A stretch of 63,992 nucleotides of DNA, filler included, from Basidioascus undulatus (lineage: Eukaryota), in NCBI GenBank assembly GCA_000826855.1. It is 6 parts of 6 records of this genome, joined end to end, with 100 filler letters (N's around TTAATTAATTAA, not from the genome) between each part and the next. Parts side by side here need not be neighbours in the genome. Positions count along the whole stretch, not along the records: positions 32,607 to 43,390 come from JTLS01001088.1; 5 more parts are not named here. The stretch is one strand, 5' to 3'. The translations under genes and the position numbers were made by a program. This document shows, piece by piece, positions 10,795 to 54,360 of this stretch (positions are counted from its first letter, which is position 1; the number at the start of each line of letters is the position of its first letter). The notes beneath the pieces are model-generated. The model saw only the letters and a list, made by a program, of their open reading frames with translations, did no database searches and was not told where the DNA came from.

Positions 10795-10894
10795 NNNNNN
10801 NNNNNNNNNNNNNNNNNNNNNNNNNNNNNNNNNNNNNNTTAATTAATTAANNNNNNNNNNNNNNNNNNNNNNNNNNNNNNNNNNNNNNNNNNNN
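10795..10894. other. Artificial contig linker N44-TTAATTAATTAA-N44
   Basis: 100-bp N spacer with a six-frame stop palindrome; identical at five positions in the window. Confidence 0.98.
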
Positions 10895-21619: not shown

Positions 21620-21719
21620 NNNNNNNNNNNNNNNNNNNNNNNNNNNNNNNNNNNNNNNNNNNNTTAATTAATTAANNNNNNNNNNNNNNNNNNNNNNNNN
21701 NNNNNNNNNNNNNNNNNNN
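21620..21719. other. Artificial contig linker
   Basis: N44-TTAATTAATTAA-N44. Confidence 0.98.
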
Positions 21720-32506: not shown

Positions 32507-32606
32507 NNNNNNNNNNNNNNNNNNNNNNNNNNNNNNNNNNNNNNNNNNNNTTAATTAATTAANNNNNNNNNNNNNNNNNNNNNNNNNNNNNNNNNNNNNN
32601 NNNNNN
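32507..32606. other. Artificial contig linker
   Basis: N44-TTAATTAATTAA-N44. Confidence 0.98.
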
Positions 32607-32923
32607 AGCATGCAGCGCTGCGGTGAGGATCCCGGTCGACGGCCGAGGCAAGGCAGCATACGGGAATGAAACGGCATCGTGGCTCGTACTGAAAGTGTAC
32701 TCTTTCTAACAAAAGGCCGGGGCATGAAAGAAACATTAACACCGCCGCCCCACTGTCGCACATGGTGGCCACACGCAAGAACCAGCGGCTGGGACCACAT
32801 TGTTGGGACGAAAAAAATTGAATTAATTAAGGGATATATCATAGCAGAATTTATCGTCAAGATCATGAAGTCAAAGTCATAATGTCATAGTCGTCGATGC
32901 GCGAGCGAGCCCGAAAGGCCTAC

Positions 32924-35900
32924 TCAGAGATAGACTGTAAACAGCAAAGATCAGCCTTCCGAACTGTAGTTTTCAACACCCGAGGTCTTACTGTCAGCCG
33001 TGATGGGGTTCTACAAAGTGGGATGAAGCGTTTAACATCAGCATGGTGGAGGGGAATTCCAGGGGCATGCCGACTCACCACTTCCAGGCCGCCTTCGATC
33101 AGGTCGACGTCTTCGAGGTAATGAAGCGGCATCTCGCAGAGAGTGCCCTGAAGGAGGGAGTGTAGCTCCGATCAGCATCTTCGAGAGGAATGATCTGATT
33201 GTCTCGCTCTGGGCTTACGCGAACTTGAGCGAGTTGCTCCTTGATGTAGCGCAGGTCAAGGCTGGGGTCGACGTGCCCAACTAGAGCGCTCGTGCGGTAG
33301 TTCTAAGAGAAAAGAGAAAGACTTCAGGAACTTTGAAATGATCGGTTTTAGAAGACGTGCTGACCTTGTAGTCTTCCCAGTTGCGGACTAAGTCCGTCGG
33401 CTGAACGTGGAACACGTCCTCAAAGATCTTGGTGTTCTTGCGGGCCGTAGATCGGTAGAGCTCCAAGAACGAGTCGGAGAGCGGGTCCTGTAACCCAAAG
33501 ATCAGGGCTGAACACGGAGAGAGCGTGGGGGTAAAGGGTGCCGTTTTGCTCACCTCAACAAGCTTGTCCTCCTCAGAGCCAAAGTCGTACGCGTTCGGGT
33601 TCGGATAAGCGCGCATGTTCTCGTCGACCCGCTCATCGTAATTGCAAGGCTGAGGCGGAATGAGGCTGCGAGAGCAGCAGATGAGTACATGCGGCAGCAA
33701 ATTGAAAGTATCATGCGCACCCGAGGTGGAAGCGGGTGAGCTGACGACGGAATGTCGTGGCAAAGCGGCCCGCCAGAAACTGCGACAATCAGAAGACGTG
33801 AGCAACCTGATTTCAGAATCTGCGAAGAGCTATCGCACCCGTTGACCATCCATCTTAGACTCGACGAGGTCCCTGTCCTCGAAGACGAGCCTGGAAGAAA
33901 CAAGATGTTAGCTGGAGACTGCAATGCCCCGACGTCGAATAAAGTGGCCTACGCAGTCTCGCTGTCACGGTCGCCGTTCATACTCCTGTCGTTGACTGAG
34001 CGGATCATCCCTATGTCAGCCAAGTTCCTTTCTGAGGAAGCAAACATCGCGTACTGTTCGCAGAGCCGATGAGGACACGGCGATCGTCGACAATCAGGAT
34101 CTTGGAGTGAACGTAGCACTTGGAAATGAAAACTGGTCAGCCTCGTTAGGGAAAAGCTTCAAGTTACAGACCCACCTGCTCTGTGCTGCAGATTGACGCC
34201 TATGCGTTAGCCGCTTGGATTGACATGAATGTACAGGGCTTCGGGTGCCTTACACGAAACTGGCAAATCGCGAATAAGGTGAGCACGCCGCACGGCAACG
34301 AAGCTTACAAGACCTACTTGTTCTTCTCGTCTTCCTCGGAGCCGAGCCACTGCTCGTCCAGAAGGCTCGTTGAATCGCGAAGCGCGTGCCCGGCGACGCT
34401 GTCGCTGACCTCCTGGTCGTCACGCGGCGCCGCAGATATAAACCGGTTGACGACGTCGCGAGCCTCCTCGACCGTCGCCGGCATCTGCACCGCCTTCTTC
34501 TGGGGCTTGGCGTTCGGGTCGACGCTGGCCGCCATCTGCTGCGGGTCGATCGAAGTCTCCCCGACGGGCTGTTGGATGAAGACCGCGCGATCCTTCGGGC
34601 CTTCGCCCTCTCCGAGCCAGACGCGAGCTTGCTGTATTGAGGCATGATAGTCAGAAACAGAAAACGAAGTGCTTGCGTGGGGTCTGCTCTTACAGCGACC
34701 TGGGCTTGGTGGAACGACACCCCGCTCTTCTCCTCCATCTCGCGGATGAGCTTGCGGTCGTAGTTGATACGGTCGTAACTGCACATGAATTGTGCCGGTC
34801 AGCGCTAAAGTGTAAGTCCCGAAATCGCGCAAGGGCATTACCTGTGCAGGTTGTAGAAGCTGTACCACAAGACGGCATTCAGATGCCGTCTCGAGAGACG
34901 CTTGCACAAGGTGAAACGCACCGAATATACTCGTCCGGGTTCACACCAGCCTTGCGAATTACTTCCATAATGGACTTGCCCTTGCGGCAGATGCTGGCGT
35001 ATTCTGGGTTTATGCTTTCACGTCAGTACTGACACTATTATGGGAGTGCGTGTCGACATACGAGCGTGCATGATGGCCCTGACGTGCGGATGAGGTTAGC
35101 TTATTGTTGTCGAGGCGGAAGCAGGGAAGCTCACTTGGTACCTGCAGCTCCTTGGATGTCGCCTGTTCGGAAGAGCGTCAGAAAAAAAGCACACAGAAAA
35201 TGATATCGCTGCGAAACGGACCAGCGAATCCTGGAACCGCGGGGATGACAATGGTCACCTGCATCGGAAGTACAGCGCTTCAGAGGGACCATGATGCCGT
35301 GCGACGACATGGGAGAAGACTGCGTACCAGGAACTTCTGCTTGTCTTTGGCAGACTGCAGGATACGCTCGACTATGGCAGCGCCAATGCGGTTGTCGACG
35401 GGGCGGCCATCGCCAACGGCCGTCTGGATGCTGCATCAGAAACCGACTGGAAGACAAGGCTAACTGCTTGGGAAGACGCACGATGAAGAACTGCGGAACT
35501 TTCGTAGTCAGCTTATCCGGGAAATATTAATCACGACAGCTGCGTTGCCTACCTGGTTCCTGAACGAATCGTCGAGCGGTAAGTAATATATCTTTCCGAA
35601 GACGCAGGACAGTACCTACTCGATCCAGATGGAATGCGATGCCTCGCGGATCCTGTAGGCGAGGAGGCTCGTGAGGGATACGTTGTTGGAACGAAGACCA
35701 CAGTCCACGTACATCTCGATGTACGCATTCTGGATCGACTTTTCCGTCAGGATGCCGTTGCTCCAGTCGCCCGCGGAGCGCAGAACCTGAACGTTGACGG
35801 TGCCACGGTGACTGCGTGAGGTTCAACGGACAGGTGAGCCAGTGGTGAACGGGAATTTTGATGCACAGCACGCACGGTTCCTGCGGGTCTTTGAAGTCCT

Positions 35901-38129
35901 CCCTCGAGTTCTCGTGGTCGCCGGACCAAGGGTGCTTGAACGAGCGGCCGATCTGTATCGGAAGAGGACATTCAACTTCCACATCGATCAAATCCAACAT
36001 TGTTGGTCGGACCGCACCTCCTTCCAGCGCCCGAGGTGGGGGTGTCTGTTGACGGGCTCGTCCTGTGAGGCCGGCGAGGGTTTAGCCTCCGCGCGGGGTG
36101 TTCGAGAGCGCAGATGCTGACCTCGGGCAAGTTGTGCGGAAGCGCGAGATGGTGGTACTTCTTCTCGAGATAGTACTTCTCTGCTAGGGCAAAGTTCGTC
36201 TTCAGAGCGAGTTAAACGGAATGAGACCCTGAAAGACCGGCTCACCGTCGTAGATGTGGTTCCAGCGCTCAACGAAAAGCTGCGTCAAGTCGATCACGGA
36301 GGGGCTGGAGAACGAGGATGATTATGAGCACGCGGAGAGGTGGGAGCTGAATGCGTCGGATGAGGAAGAGGAGGAGATTGAGGAGGGCCTACCCCTTGAT
36401 AACACTGTGAATGTCGTGCCACGGGCCCCTGGGAGCTTGAAGGATCGAGATCTCGTTTCCGACATATTCGGAGACCTTGGTGAAGTCGAGAATGCGAGCG
36501 TCTTAATGGCGCGGCGCTGCTTAGCTCAAGCTCGCGAAAAAATATCCCGCATGAGCGAAAACGTACTGTCTGTTAAGCAGGGCAAAGTAAGCACCGTGTT
36601 GCGCGGTGACGACCACATGCGGATAGAAGGACTTACTGTAGTCCTGCCCCGGGAACAGCGCGCGGTCGAAGTTGGTCGGGTGCGCGTCGGCAAGGGGGTG
36701 GTTGTGCGTGTCCCACCTTCCGAAGCAGAGATCGATCCCCCCGACGAACGCGATGCGGTTGTCGATGATCTGTTATCCTTGATTAGGCAACCAGACACTC
36801 TCGGTGACCTCAGCGGAGTCAACTTACGCAGACTTTGCTGTGGTGCGAGTAGTACAGCGTGATGTCGCCTGGTGGATGAATGTAAGTATCTGCGCAGCTC
36901 CATCGGGTCGACAGGAACACACCGCCGATGTGGTCCGGCTGTATGTGGTGGAGCAGTCAGCGCGACGGGAAATTTAAGTAAGGAGGGCGAGTAAAGAACG
37001 TACGTGACGCATAACCAGGATGTTCTCGTGCAGGCTGAGAGTTGAAGATCAGATAGATCTCGTGATTGATGTTCGATGGCAACACAGGACGTACTTCATG
37101 AGCGAGTGCTTGGTGTGCGCGCTGGACATCGTCATGGTCTGCGTCACCTCCTTGTATACGACCACGTACTAAAAGAACCCAATCAGTTCGCTCTCTTCAA
37201 GTCGCAGCCGCCTTCTGAACCCAAGCGAGACCCTGACGTACAATGCGAACACCCTGCTCGGCCTTGCGCTTCAACACCCTGTCCAGGCGCCACTCCTCGT
37301 TCTTTGTGGGAGGCCGGCGGAGGTAGAGCTCGGGCGACACTGGGAATGGTAGATCGAGACATACGACACAGCAAAGGTTAGCAAGGCTGTGAAGAAACGG
37401 AGTGCAGGACCCAGCACGGACGCCACCAGTCGAGAATCTGTAAGTACGCTCGCACTTAGTCTCAGAGTCCCCTTGTTTAATAAAAACAAGATGCGGCTCA
37501 CGTAGATGGACTCCTGTGCATTCTCGAGCGCCCTGTACTCAATGTCAGCGCTTGCCGCTCATGTCAAGGCTAGCGTAGACTGCCACGCTTACTCCGAGAG
37601 AGCGTAGAAGTAGTCATGACCGTCGATAAACCTTCGATATGATCCAGTCGTTAGTGCACAGTCATAGACGGGCTTGCAGCAGAGGACGAAAGGAACGTAC
37701 CACCTCGCGCGGTTTCCCTCGCGCGGCGGAGCGAAGCTCTTGAAACGATGAGACTCGGCGATCTCGGTCCTGTAACACGGTAAACGAATTCAGCGTGCCC
37801 TTCTGGCAGATGAGATATTCCACCTGGACGCACCTGATTCTGTCCGCCTCCTGCAAAGCCCCTCCAATGAAACCTCAGCACAGCCCCCTCGCATATGATT
37901 CCCTCCTCAACAGGCCCAATCTGACCTTCTCGTGCTCCTCGTCGTGACGATCTGCAGCCAAACATGTTCAGTGCGTTCGAATGCGAAGGATGCACGACTT
38001 CGACCTACGATTCGGGTTCACCACGAACCGGATGGTCCTTCCCGTCTGGTGCAGGCGGTTGTTCGCCTCGACGCTAAGGTCCTTGAATTGGTCCCCGATG
38101 TCCTTGAGCGAGTCAAATAACTTCGACAT
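32924..38129 (-). CDS. Phospholipase D (fungal short form without PX/PH domains), many introns
   Basis: NPNR-RHDEEHEK, FKSFAPPR, IDGHDYFYAL, ELYLRRPPA, VVVYKEVTQTM, first HKD region (IDNRIAFVGGIDLCFGRWDT), IVRLPKQ, second HKD YVHSKILIVDDRRVLIGSAN and GDRDS. Ends NPITADIYL*. Confidence 0.92.
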
Positions 38130-38669
38130 TCTCGATGCTTTGGTCAGTAGCGTGGTTGGTATTCGCGATGAAGATGAAGGTGGACGTTGTCGCGGCGGAC
38201 GTGCACCTTCGCCTCCCGAACTCCCGAACGCGATATCGGGGCGGTGCTGCGGCGCCCCCTTGATTTCCACGTGAATCAGTTTCGGAAAATGCGGCGATTT
38301 CACTCAAACGTCGAACAAGGCTGCAAGCTTGGGAAGTTGTCATCTCTTGTTAACATTGTCTACCATATTTTAAAGCCGAGCCGGTGTATTGTGAGGGATC
38401 CTCCAGGTGTTCGTGCTTACAGTACACTCGAAGTCGCGGAGACACTGCGGTGCCACAGTCCGCTTTCCCGACACTCCATCGCGTTGGCCTGCACCAGCTT
38501 CATTGCACCATGCCAACATACAAAATATTGTAAGTGAATACAAGTACCCACCTCGGACACTCACTCAAATACAGACCACAACAAAAGTTAACGCCAATAG
38601 CACAGCGAACACCTTTTTGCGTCCCCAACTTCAAGCCGCCTACCCTCCTCTCATTTCTGCCGGGACCCT

Positions 38670-39329
38670 TTATATTAGCATGTAGGATACTGTTAGATCT
38701 ATAACCATGGTCTGAAGACAACGTCCTGGACACCTCTGCCGGTATATGCTGCGTAGCTCGCAGCCGCCTCCTTGAGGCGACAATCACAAACGCCCGGACC
38801 TCATACCTTCCAAGATCACATACGGACAATACAAATCGGTACAGTTTTTTGAAAGTACTCACGATTGACCATCGCATGCAGCTCGTCCCCGTCCACCAGC
38901 TTGAGGCCCTCCGGCGTGTCCCCACCGCGCACGCGCGCCCCCTCGAACAAGAACCTACGCTCCAGAAGACATTCAAATCGACAACACTGCCTAGACTTCT
39001 TCATTACCTAAACTGGCTCGGGATCATCCTGCGTATACCCGCGTACGTTGTGAACAGCCTGCTCATCCGCGTGTTGGGCTTGAGGCCCAGCCGAGTGACA
39101 TTCTGTGTCCGTCCCCACTGTCAAACAAAAACCGAAATTGAAAGAAAAGGGACCGCGTTTGCTCATGCCCCTTCCTGCGAAACGATCTGCTCATCCCAGC
39201 CGAGGTCAGCTATCCCTCGCACTGACAGTGCGCACGACGCACATGCAGCGTCATCCTCGCGACTGCCGGTCGCCTTGAGAGAGATGGGAGTGTCGCAAGA
39301 AAAGTTTTGGGCGCTTGCTGGGTACTCAT
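38670..39329 (-). CDS. Divergent SUMO-like protein A (Rad60-SLD/SUMO fold); C-terminal splicing uncertain
   Basis: Spliced reading MSTQQAPK..RMTLH|IVSQEG..|NVTRLGLKPNTRMSRLFTTYAGIRRMIPSQFR|FLFEGARVRGGDTPEGLKLVDGDELHAMVN, with a possible downstream (R)GG at 38763-38768. Needs a homopolymer correction near 39168. Confidence 0.72.
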
Positions 39330-39793
39330 AGTCAGGGGTGGTCGTGATAGTGGGAGGACAGAATAAAGAAGGCAGAAACGTGCGATCGGGATCAGGAGAT
39401 GGGTTGCAGCGTGCGTCTGCAGCGTGGTTCCACGACAAGTACAAATCCGAGCGTTCTTAGATCTCCACTGCCATGTCGGTTTGAGTTCGAGAGTTTTGAA
39501 ATAGATCTTGGTCGAGAACTGCTGTTGCTTAGGAGGACGCCGTACAACAAGGGTCGCTTTCGCGTTCGTTTCACATGAGCGAGTATGCCGCTCTGCCCTG
39601 AAACAGTGGAATTACCCCAACCCTGGCAAAGCTTCAAGAGCATGGTATATCTCTTCAATATATCGATTTTCAGTGCAACACGGCTCAATCTCAGCCCCAG
39701 AGGTCAGAATCACAGCGCCGCCCTTGCGCAGCCGCGGTCCAGCTCCGACCCCAACTTCCTACGCTACTTCTCAAGAACCACTTCCCAACCAGA

Positions 39794-40448
39794 TTACCAT
39801 GCTCCAATCTTTAAAGTTCCGCAATTAATCAGGGGTCGGTTTCTCCTCCGAACAAGCCAGCGCACTACTCACGCTGGACCACCGCCTGCGTACACCACGC
39901 CGCGCGGCCCCCTCGCGACGCTCTGTCAGCCGGCACCCGCTGCAAGATGTCCAGCAAAAGAGGTCTTACGTAGATAGTGTCGTCCTCCACCAGCTCCAGG
40001 CCCCCGCCGTGTCCTCGTCTCGGACGCGCTCGCCGTCGTAGAGTAGCCTTTGCCCCGGCGCCAGGCCACAGAGTCAGTAACGGTACCCGCGCCACCATTT
40101 GTAGAGGTTGGCGCGCACCGGACGGTCCCCGGGGTCGAGTCCTAGACGCTTGGCATAGGTCTTCTTGAGTTTGCCATCTGCCCGTGGGAAATGGAGGGAG
40201 AACGGGCAGGGTATAGTTGGAAGGCTCACCTTGCTCGTCTGCTTCAGCTTGAACGCGACCTCGCCCCCATCCTGTGCCCCTCTTCTTAGGGAATGGGAAC
40301 ATGAGAAAGTGAAGGTGCTTGACAAACCTGGGCGACTGTCTGCGCCCCCATTGCAAGCACGGGTCAGTGACCACCTCGCGGCACCCCTCCCCTCAGAACG
40401 CAGTGAGCGCACCCGGATCGAGACGTGATGCTCGCTTTCGTCGGCCAT
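39794..40448 (-). CDS. Divergent SUMO-like protein B; end approximate
   Basis: Spliced reading MADESEHHVSIR|TVAQ|DGGEVAFKLKQTSK|MGKLKKTYAKRLGLDPGTVR|LLYDGERVRDEDTAGGLELVEDDTIY|AVVQ. Requires three 1-nt corrections in G/C runs (about 40175, 40130, 40000). Confidence 0.78.
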
Positions 40449-40652
40449 GGCTCAGTAGGAGTCAGTATATGGGGATAAGGAAGATGTTTTGAGGGAGGTG
40501 AAGTGCCGCTGGAAGACGATGATGAGGGCAAGAGGCTGAGGAGGGCTCAGCAGCGACAGAGCGGATGTCCGCAGGGGATCGCCGCGTTCGCTCGCTTCCG
40601 TGCGCAGGTAACACGCGTCGGGAACGCGACGAACGAGCATTGAACAGTACCC

Positions 40653-40659
40653 TTTTATA
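40653..40659 (-). promoter_or_regulatory. Probable TATA box of SUMO-like gene B
   Basis: GTATAAAAGG on the minus strand, about 205 bp upstream of the ATG at 40448 and followed by a CT-rich leader. Confidence 0.45.
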
Positions 40660-41540
40660 CCTCCGTTTTTCTCCAAGATTAGTCCGCCAAGGACAAAGGG
40701 TGTCGCACGGAACGGCATTTGGAGCGCTCACTTCCTGGGGTCATCTTCCTCTCATAGGCTGTCTACCCTCTACGAAATAATTCATACGGAGTAGATGCTT
40801 CGAGGTGTATGAGAAAAATGGAAGCAGCACTTCCTTCAGCAGGTGCGTGAATCGACCGGTCTCCCCTCATGGCTCCGCCCCGCCCTGAGCGGCGGTATTT
40901 TCCTTCGGATCGCCCTGGAGACTAGGAACAATTTTTGAACTTCCTTCTGAAAAGAGCCCTTTATATTGTTTGAAACATTCTGGCCGGCAAGGGAGTCTCA
41001 CAGGCTGCCCATCGACATCCGCAGTTCTGCAGATTGCCATGTAACACCGGTGAGGAACGCCCGTACAGTTGATCTACTCATGGGAGGACGACGTTCATCG
41101 GCCTCGGTCTGTCTTGAGCGCGGTCATCATGGAAAGTTTTTAGTTCTTTTTTTTGATAATTTTCGGATTCTTTCATGATCTGAGTCATGATTGTACGTGT
41201 CTGCTAATGCCACGAGAAACTGAGGTGTTATTGGCCACCGTGACCTTTTGTGCAAACCCCTTCCTTCAAAGTTCATAATCCGAGACTGAAGGTCTCTTTC
41301 AGGCCGCAGAGAAAAATAAAAGGCTTTGTCGCTCATAGCAAATCCACTTCGTACAGTCTGCCCTATAGCAGTACCGCAAGGACTTGAAGGAATCTGGCTG
41401 TCAATAACCCCGGGCCGGCGACACGCCAGTACATTTGCTTCCGAACGACGTCGCGTCTTGCTCTGGTCCTCTCGCCGTCTCCTTCTCGCTCTCGGTCTCC
41501 GCCTTCCCGTTCTTGTACCTCTTGCCTCGCATCGCCAGAC

Positions 41541-42843
41541 ATGTCTCAGGAAGAGTCCGCGTCAACCTCCAAGATCAACTTGGAGGTGCACTACGACGAG
41601 GCGGGGCGGACCGAGTCGCTTTCGTTCTCCGTCAAGCCGACCACCAAGGTACGCGTCCAGGCTCGTCCCCTTCTTGCGATGTATGCTGAGCTCGGACCCT
41701 GGACGTGCAGTTCTCGAAGGTGATTATAATTGATGGTAGATTATGCTTTCTGAGCGCTTATGTGTGGGTCTGGATAGATCTTTGCCGCGTTTTGTGCGCA
41801 GACGGGCAAGTCGCTCAGTGCGTGCACTCTCCTCCGGCCCCCTCCCGTGCGAGCGCTCTGCTCCGGCTGAGCGACGCATGCCACTGCAGACATGCTCAAA
41901 TTCACGTACGACGGCAAGCGAGTGAACGGTGAGGATACGCCCAAAATGCTCGAGATGGTGGGCCGACGCTTCGCCCTCCTCCCCTCCGCGGCGACGATGG
42001 AGCTCATGGGTCGCTCGTCGTGGGTTTCAAAGGAGGACGGCGACTCGCTCGATGCGCACATGGAGCAGGTGCGCTTCTCCCCCACTTCTAGTGCACCGGG
42101 CGTAGCGGACCGTCTGTTGATCGGTTGGAAGAGCGCTTCAGATTGGTGGTGCTGCGGGGGAGGACGAGGACGCGCCTGCGGCGAAGGCGGAGGGAAAAAA
42201 TTCGTGTGCCCATCACCCTGTTCCCCCTTCTCCAACATATTCCCTTACCCTTCTTGACATGCAGACTGAATATTGAGTACCAAGAAGGGGGTCAAATGAA
42301 AGGCACGTCGCTCCCACCTCTCCAACCCCACCACCAGCTCACGCCGGTTCTTTATAGACCTCACTTTTCAGGTCAAGCCGGCAACGAGGTCCGCCATCCT
42401 GCTCACCTCCTTTCCAGCGCCGTACCATCTCACCTTGCTCTTCCCAACGCAGTCGAAAAGGTCTTCAACGCATTCGCAAAAACAGTCGGAATGAACGCCG
42501 GTTCGTCCCGCGTCCCGCGTCCTATTCCCTATCCCCACCCGCTCCTCCGAATCTCACTTCCCCCTTCGACCCGCAGGCATGATCCGCTTCCTCTTTGACG
42601 GCAAGCGAGTACAGAAGCAAGATACGCCTAAGATGGTTTGTCCTCCGCTGCCTGACACTTTCTCAAGGACGCGGATGCGCTGACATGATATATATCCTGG
42701 CGCAGTACGAGATGGAGGACCGTTGGATATTGTCGAGGGTGAGTGTGCTCAACGTTGTGTTTCCTTCAGAGTCCTGCTTACGCGAGGATGGGAGCAGCGC
42801 ACGTGGAGCAGGTCGGCGCTGCGCAGCGGCAGTGACATGGTGA
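41541..42843 (+). CDS. Tandem di-SUMO-like protein (two SUMO-like domains separated by QIGG and an acidic linker)
   Basis: Domain 1: KINLEVHYDEAGRTESLSFSVKPTTK|FSK|IFAAFCAQTGKSL|DMLKFTYDGKRVNGEDTPKMLEM|EDGDSLDAHMEQ|IGG. Linker: AAGEDEDAPAAKAEG. Domain 2: LNIEYQEGGQMK|DLTFQVKPAT..EKVFNAFAKTVGMNA|GMIRFLFDGKRVQKQDTPKM|YEMED..DIVE|AHVEQVG(A/G). Confidence 0.85.
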
Positions 42844-43212
42844 CTGGTCGGAGGTGGATGTGCGTGGGTTCTCACTTCAGCTACACATTCTGGAACTTTT
42901 GGTTGAGTGGGACGGTCAATGCCTCGCTCAGGCGTGGTGGTTTTTGGGGCACGGGTGGCGGGTGACGGACGTGGGTCGGGAGCGAGCAGTGGACGGCGGG
43001 GGGTTTTCGAATTCGAGGACAGGATTCGCTTTTAACTTCATCATTTCGGGGGCTCCGCTGTGTCTCTTTACACTGGTCATGCCAACATGATCGCCTTTCG
43101 TGCGCAGCTCTCGGGATGACCCGCTAGTTTGCGAGCGAGCGGCGCTACTATCGCTCGTCCTTCTGACCATTTTTTTATCCGCAACTGCTATAACGACCCT
43201 CTGAAACGACTT

Positions 43213-43390
43213 ATGAAGCATTCTATCTCTATTCTCGCTGCAGTTGCAGCGCTCCCCGCGGCGCTCGCAGCACCCCTGACCAATTCGAAGCGCCAGCTGG
43301 GGAGCGTTACCGGGGCGTGAACATCGGTGGATGGCTCCTGATGGAGTAAGTCTTACGTGTAGTCGCTTGAGAACTGAATGCAGCGTGCTT
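43213..43390 (+). CDS. 5' end of a probable secreted protein (truncated by the contig end; frame broken at 43318)
   Basis: Signal peptide MKHSISILAAVAALPAALA, then AP and a Kex2-like KR site (NSKRQLG). Donor GTAAGT near 43346. Confidence 0.5.
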
Positions 43391-43490
43391 NNNNNNNNNN
43401 NNNNNNNNNNNNNNNNNNNNNNNNNNNNNNNNNNTTAATTAATTAANNNNNNNNNNNNNNNNNNNNNNNNNNNNNNNNNNNNNNNNNNNN
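43391..43490. other. Artificial contig linker
   Basis: N44-TTAATTAATTAA-N44. Confidence 0.98.
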
Positions 43491-54260: not shown

Positions 54261-54360
54261 NNNNNNNNNNNNNNNNNNNNNNNNNNNNNNNNNNNNNNNN
54301 NNNNTTAATTAATTAANNNNNNNNNNNNNNNNNNNNNNNNNNNNNNNNNNNNNNNNNNNN
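54261..54360. other. Artificial contig linker
   Basis: N44-TTAATTAATTAA-N44. Confidence 0.98.

Follow-up and report, generated by a model that had tools for sequence, protein, structure and literature searches.

By analogy, the locus described here comes closest to what is known from plants, where SUMO genes form tandem arrays, concatemers and pseudogenes. Passages of Hammoudi et al. 2016 (PMC6680281) report tandem duplications of genes for this ubiquitin-like modifier, with transcribed pseudogenes in Arabidopsis, and in the grasses the GSUL2/DSUL array of head-to-tail SUMO concatemers, some of them without the terminal diglycine (diGly, GG). Among fungi, the passages of a survey that bear on copy number (PMC7691676) record two or more Smt3-like genes in 5 of the 41 surveyed, including the Agaricomycetes Trametes versicolor and Schizophyllum commune, with one copy lacking GG in some species and ending in a single Gly in some. 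Here we analyse a cluster of three SUMO-like genes, A, B and C, with four SUMO units (two of them, C1 and C2, in gene C), in a 63,992-base stretch of Basidioascus undulatus DNA (assembly GCA_000826855.1), the whole of which is called the window. On the evidence of observed homology, splice structures, transcription of genes B and C, and lesions, this locus is probably a tandem SUMO gene family under birth and death and not a new modifier system.

Set beside the plant genes as those passages describe them, the locus shares with GSUL2/DSUL and Arabidopsis the combination of diverged tandem SUMO paralogs, a concatemer, a unit without diGly and a transcribed, pseudogenised copy. Unlike GSUL2/DSUL, it lies in a fungus-like, intron-dense genome and is much smaller (three genes, four units); its second concatemer unit is frame-shifted and not merely devoid of GG, and no developmental role is in evidence here. 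The fungal survey, which draws on annotated proteins only, describes in the same passages no cluster, concatemer or pseudogenes of the kind seen here. The literature searched, whose coverage excludes most subscription journals, turned up no account of a fungal SUMO cluster combining a concatemer with pseudogenes, and a review on Agaricomycete fruiting bodies, in the part covered, does not mention SUMO.

SUMO homology and the sequence data

The window comprises six pieces of about 10.7 kb each, joined by N44-TTAATTAATTAA-N44 linkers; since the pieces are merely joined, neighbourhood arguments are valid only inside the piece 32607–43390, within which the SUMO locus lies. In six-frame translation of the window, the 13-residue motif [FL]x[FY][DE]GxRVxxxDT occurs four times, all between 38915 and 42626, as against 0 occurrences across 100 mononucleotide shuffles. 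The four copies of this signature announced by an earlier, sequence-only reading of the DNA thus hold up, and so does the layout that it proposed: two tandem minus-strand genes (A and B) and one divergent plus-strand gene (C). It had also suggested a profile scan, and all four motif exons do match Pfam Rad60-SLD (PF11976), at profile positions 41–72, with E-values of 0.0032 (A), 0.34 (B), 0.19 (C1) and 0.071 (C2); as single exons, their scores of 17.7, 11.2, 12.0 and 13.4 bits, respectively, all fall below the 23.8-bit cut-off because each is a fragment of one third of the domain. The motif exon of gene A additionally matches solved SUMO chains (E 3.9e-5), and that of C1 a solved di-SUMO2 chain (E 1e-4) and Smt3 (E 0.03). 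The SUMO homology at the four motif sites is genuine and not a product of chance. No further SUMO-like copies were found by tblastn in the window's five other pieces.

As each unit is spread over 4–6 exons, complete domains were scored with a hidden Markov model (HMM) of the SUMO unit, built in this analysis from 79 units of 44 hit proteins; P0001, whose repeats are fragments, was excluded, and 100 shuffled controls reached a best score of 2.5 bits. The gene structures rest on three sequencing runs, X1, X2 and X3, used as assembled contigs rather than raw reads and coming from at most two samples. Contigs of 10,616 nucleotides (nt) from X1 (depth 19) and X2 (depth 62) reproduce 38400–43273 with 0 other letters and 0 gaps. 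The short contigs of X3, on the other hand, omit 18 stretches of 55–88 nt, which end in GT-AG in 17 cases and in GC-AG in one; X3 is read as a transcriptome because its contigs are spliced and its depth is zero at introns and over intergenic DNA. The GC content is 57%, and the introns found at the locus measure 53–125 nt.

Gene structures, transcripts and lesions

Gene C carries both of its SUMO units head to tail on a single transcript, the joint 42203>42265 being present in X3 record 9 with fitting phases. Its introns 1–11 measure 62, 58, 72, 75, 73, 61, 55 (the GC-AG intron), 64, 76, 70 and 59 nt, and intron 12 (42860–42931) 72 nt, with the last exon reaching at least 43050. The open reading frame (ORF) starts at ATG 41541 and runs for 153 amino acids (aa) to a TGA at 42596–42598. 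Within it, C1 extends without lesion over 6 exons and 5 phase-exact junctions, its ORF being supported by RNA; it is acidic (isoelectric point, pI, 4.9) and scores 90.9 bits with the SUMO-unit HMM, residues 12–90 aligning on positions 3–78. With the profile of the whole ~72-residue domain, GG, a presumably removable tail of 63 aa and an open frame in the mature transcript, C1 has all the features that would be expected, by sequence, of a working SUMO precursor, albeit with an unusually long tail. The sequence-only reading had called it non-canonical, a label not borne out for so ordinary-looking a SUMO, acidic and GG-ended: like Smt3, C1 is acidic, fits the beta-grasp sequence profile across the entire domain, ends in ...EQIGG and carries a C-terminal extension. 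It is unlike Smt3 in that its extension, which in Smt3 is only a few residues beyond GG, amounts to 63 residues derived from a second SUMO unit.

That second unit is broken. A phase error of one at the junction 42388|42453 takes the ORF out of the SUMO frame and on to a stop; a second lesion, of one base, lies near 42720, and the conceptual end reads ...HVEQVGAAQRQ before a stop, with a single G in place of GG. Read through, C2 scores 64.3 bits. The exon lengths in X3 record 9 are those of the genome and their sum fits the record's 489 nt, so the gene C RNA carries the same lesions as the DNA, and no splice sites with GT/GC-AG ends were found that would rescue C2. Gene C is consequently not a di-SUMO in the sense of having both units translated in frame.

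Gene B is likewise broken, in a message that is still processed precisely. Its rebuilt mRNA of 468 nt equals X3 record 6 (468 nt) across six introns, all GT-AG, with an ORF of 72 aa ending at the stop 39796–39794. Intron 3 takes out most of the ancestral helix-coding stretch (GKLKKTYAKRLG..., 40175–40142), and the ancestral acceptor at 40178 would lead to an in-frame TAG. The frame then slips at a run of five G after ...LLYDGERVRDEDTA, between ...DEDTA and GLELVEDDTIY, where the X3 piece 39969–40046 shows 0 other letters and 0 gaps. GG is missing from the last exon and from the mRNA as a whole. The real ORF scores 24.7 bits in two scraps, short of a whole domain, as compared with 58.2 bits when the gene is read through with X at the breaks. 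No rescuing splice sites with GT/GC-AG ends were found, apart from a partial rescue via a 66-nt intron and a GC donor, unlike the form in X3. Gene B is a transcribed and correctly spliced pseudogene with a 72-aa non-SUMO product, so called because this product lacks helix alpha-1, the last strand (beta-5) and GG.

For gene A, the predicted structure is a four-exon model whose three GT-AG introns, of 125, 53 and 92 nt, have consistent phases; its product of 129 aa reads ...MVNRGG followed by a 30-aa tail. It scores 56.3 bits over the whole domain (residues 33–98 on positions 11–76). Its intron 1 (39118–39242) contains a relic of the 12-nt micro-exon of gene B, its donor gone; the loss of this micro-exon shortens the first hairpin by 4 residues relative to that of C1. 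The shortened hairpin and the very basic predicted mature part (pI 11.8, against 4.9 for C1) set gene A apart from Smt3/SUMO. X3 contigs have no cover over gene A (38400–39547), which has no bearing either way on its expression.

Table 1. Positions of the SUMO locus features and of the linkers, counted along the window
Feature	Position	Strand	Details
SUMO motif, gene A	38915-38953	-	six-frame translation
SUMO motif, gene B	40008-40046	-	six-frame translation
SUMO motif, C unit 1	41901-41939	+	six-frame translation
SUMO motif, C unit 2	42588-42626	+	six-frame translation
Gene C transcript	at least 41479 to at least 43050	+	13 exons, 12 introns; X3 joints and contigs
C unit 1, coding stretch	41541-42150	+	90-aa SUMO, ends ...HMEQIGG (GG codons 42145-42150)
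Micro-exon of 9 nt, C unit 1	41711-41719	+	present in spliced X3 contigs
Tail after C1 GG, 63 aa	42151-42598	+	acidic linker, unit-2 strands 1-2, then out-of-frame residues
C unit 2, relic	42265-42843	+	frame lost at 42388|42453, again near 42720
GC-AG intron, gene C	42303-42357	+	X3 contig joint 42300>42356, movable by 2
Gene B	39692-40595	-	seven exons; X3 record 6 and rebuilt mRNA
Gene B exons	40595-40413 (ATG 40448), 40339-40328 (12 nt), 40271-40230, 40141-40119 (23 nt), 40047-39970, 39885-39873 (13 nt), 39808-39692	-	X3 joints
Gene B intron 3, 88 nt	40142-40229	-	X3 joint 40140>40229
Run of five G (C on + strand), gene B	40001-40005	-	frame shift site
Gene A, model only	38670-39329	-	4 exons: 39329-39243, 39117-39008, 38954-38863, 38770-38670
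Intergenic stretch, divergent, between B and C transcript 5' ends	40596-41478	.	X3 depth 0 over 40696-41187
Linkers	10795-10894, 21620-21719, 32507-32606, 43391-43490, 54261-54360		N44-TTAATTAATTAA-N44

An assembly error as the source of the frameshifts was considered and rejected, as the contigs of X1, X2 and X3 all agree with the window; the frameshifts, seen alike in the contigs of two DNA runs and in those of the RNA, are real. The decay of B and C2 would be recent relative to the duplications (27–48% identity between units), since their read-through frames are free of stops, contain no more than 2–3 lesions each and retain scores of 58 and 64 bits.

Measured against these structures, the sequence-only reading comes out divided. 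The spliced contigs of X3 give 6 exact introns in B and 12 in C, and two of the three genes are transcribed, but the frames of B and C2 are broken. Of the four SUMO-fold domains that it counted, C1 (supported by RNA) and A (as a model) are open and complete, whereas B and C2 have broken frames, in DNA contigs and spliced contigs alike. Neither the B transcript nor C unit 2 can give a SUMO fold, and the notion that all four are usable as modifiers or decoys is not supported.

Relatives of the four units and competing explanations

The units of the locus are 27–33% identical in pairwise comparison, except for C1 and C2, which reach 48%; in nucleotide comparison, the motif exon alone can be aligned (A against B, 70.9% over 79 nt). 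Genes A and B have three intron positions and phases in common, as the sequence-only reading had held, while B and C have in common a phase-0 intron after K(Q/P)T(S/T)K. The local duplication of SUMO paralogs with tiny exons that it envisaged is likewise seen in tandem copies with micro-exons of 9, 12 and 13 nt. Between C1 and C2, the proportion of nonsynonymous differences (pN) is 0.35 and that of synonymous differences (pS) 0.71.

A full HMMER scan of 1.84 billion representative proteins with the exon ORF of gene A gave 45 hits at E <= 0.001, nearly all of them chains with 2 to 19 matched stretches, and no relative with more than about 50% identity over the exon. All ten of the hits that were scanned carry 2–6 Rad60-SLD units, many of the units GG-ended. 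This polyubiquitin-style build of two to six units per chain, often with GG, is seen in P0002, P0005, P0006, P0020, P0022, P0033 and P0035; unlike gene C, these public concatemers are open throughout, and they are at most 53% identical to C1. By comparison, P0001 (1027 aa) has 19 matched stretches in which only the SUMO motif exon and what appears to be read-through intron sequence are repeated; the likely explanation is a mis-called ORF, or else gene fragments arrayed in tandem, in another genome. Two word-indexed searches with the exon ORF of C1, spanning 5.8 billion proteins, yielded 25 candidates among proteins of 124–2000 aa and 12 among those of 66–212 aa, none at E <= 10, a result that with so weak, exon-sized a query is no evidence of absence. 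Between C1 and SUMO units from unrelated eukaryotic proteins, identity is 44–53%, the usual range between canonical SUMOs of distant species.

A tree of 83 rows and 79 columns, made from 79 library units and the four units of the window, is poorly resolved overall, and its library rows came from a search favouring repeat proteins; it places C1 and C2 as sisters (Shimodaira–Hasegawa-like approximate likelihood ratio test, SH-aLRT, 93), within a clade that includes concatemer units of P0022, P0033 and P0035 (96); the positions of A and B are without support. Branch lengths are 0.35 for C1, 0.48 for C2 and 1.22 for gene A, the last about three times the median (0.39). Relatives of P0022 (22 of 230 candidates at E <= 1e-5) are "small ubiquitin-related modifier" proteins of two to three units from environmental assemblies. 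An Atlas look-up of P0022 returned generic eukaryotic SUMO clusters only; for the concatemers, the Atlas hints at a range of eukaryotes, diatoms among them in the case of a 181-aa cluster. A different comparison is offered by Rad60, Esc2 and NIP45, large proteins with two C-terminal SUMO-like domains (SLDs) and N-terminal SUMO-interacting motifs (SIMs), in which the SUMO-fold domains are not conjugated. By contrast, the proteins of the locus are small (ORFs of 72 aa for B, 129 aa for the model of A and 153 aa for C), and C1 and A keep GG; none is a large GG-less protein with C-terminal SLDs.

These patterns can be accommodated by a history in which an intron-rich SUMO gene would have been duplicated in place several times, presumably with divergence afterwards. 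Gene C would have started as a head-to-tail di-SUMO precursor, and a Ulp-type protease may now cut behind the QIGG of C1, releasing a 90-residue acidic SUMO that could be conjugated by E1/E2 enzymes, with the 63-residue remainder—the wreck of unit 2—being discarded. Gene B would have decayed to a pseudogene while still being transcribed and accurately spliced, and gene A may represent a fast-evolving, very basic copy, open in silico, that has kept its RGG and propeptide and lost the micro-exon. It is possible, if doubtful, that matters are simpler and that C1 is the organism's one canonical SMT3, the rest being dead or dying duplicates with nothing "non-canonical" about them: C1 is acidic, transcribed and ends in QIGG, matches the whole SUMO HMM at the score given above and stands at the usual distance from unrelated eukaryotic SUMO units. 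Yet the want of any close relative among 5.8 billion proteins, even allowing for the weakness of exon-sized queries, would be odd for a housekeeping SUMO, and C1 groups with concatemer units and not with single-unit proteins, albeit in a library drawn from a repeat-favouring search. Alternatively, the locus might be the fungal equivalent of the DSUL/GSUL2 hotspot of grasses, a site at which SUMO units keep being duplicated, fused and lost, with A (pI 11.8, RGG retained, long branch) or C1 as a second, lineage-specific conjugatable modifier next to a canonical SMT3, and with the stop-bearing B and C RNAs perhaps regulated and prone to decay; we regard this as unlikely.

We consider it quite unlikely that a canonical SMT3 elsewhere does the work and that every one of the four units, even C1 and A, is a drifting relic. 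The branch of C1 is indeed little shorter than that of the broken C2, with A's far longer still, and the gene C mRNA has a long, intron-bearing 3' part past its stop; but C1 is lesion-free through all its exons and junctions with its GG kept, and the excess of pS over pN against C2 fits past constraint. The sequence-only reading's proposal of co-regulated alternative modifiers or SIM-binding decoys, which would call for functions of A, of the C tail and of the truncated product of B, is very unlikely. The divergent placement and transcription of both B and C, the splicing of B that is still precise at 6 introns, the RGG and open frame of gene A, and paralogs still alignable at 27–48% identity, and so long kept by selection, are what it can call upon. 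Against it stand the loss of helix alpha-1, strand beta-5 and GG from the B ORF, which retains only two scraps of the domain, the out-of-frame position of C2 in the transcript, and the outcome of the search with gene A, in which all 45 hits are repeat proteins or weak.

Birth and death of a tandem family is the reading we prefer, and several points weigh against it. The gene C mRNA has a stop codon followed by three further introns and is possibly unstable. For selection on C1 and A, the ratio of nonsynonymous to synonymous rates (dN/dS) between units is uninformative, as synonymous sites are saturated (pS 0.61–0.71). The N-terminal exons of C1 and A gave 0 matches at E <= 10 against solved structures, and the full-domain scores are those of the HMM of this analysis, Pfam having been applied to single exons only. 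X2 shares its sample with X3, and the window itself may derive from X1 and X2; X3 is listed as "DNA?", its RNA nature being what we infer. Contigs also lose rare variants, such that an intact allele might be present in a second nucleus or haplotype.

Flanking sequence and biological meaning

Around the locus, a Pfam search of 88 ORFs of at least 45 aa in 32607–38700 gave one relevant match, the PLDc motif at 36524–36772 on the minus strand (E 2.8e-4, just below the cut-off), the six other matches being weak and to unrelated families, including Exog_C (E 4.9e-4). An ORF beginning MSKLFDSL..., from about 38133 on the minus strand, may be the start of the PLDc-bearing gene or of another minus-strand gene beside gene A. 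Pfam found 0 families in eleven long ORFs near the locus and 0 in 20 long ORFs elsewhere in the window, and Rfam gave 0 matches on the piece. The only repeat detected is the paralogous exon of A and B; inverted repeats were not found, and nothing points to a mobile element. Between B and C, an X3 contig matches 41231–41263 alone (33 bases) with unlike flanks, probably as a short shared repeat or by chance. Downstream of gene C, 43213–43350 on the plus strand has the look of a gene start, with a signal-peptide-like N-terminus and a RGVNIGGWLLME stretch, which we take to be typical of GH5 glucanases; X1 and X2 also contain a second contig that differs from 43154–43273 by 6 changes and 3 gaps and so represents a paralog elsewhere.

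SUMO in fungi is usually single-copy and highly constrained, and the locus suggests that it can undergo local duplication, head-to-tail fusion and decay outside plants too. It also provides a worked annotation, with micro-exons of 9–13 nt and one GC-AG intron, of the kind missed by gene finders, and cautions that motif-bearing copies are not to be equated with working modifiers. Should C1 turn out to be a second SUMO that can be conjugated, or A a basic tag resembling SUMO, sumoylation specific to individual paralogs would become testable in a fungus; otherwise, the locus would represent the ordinary turnover of a gene family.

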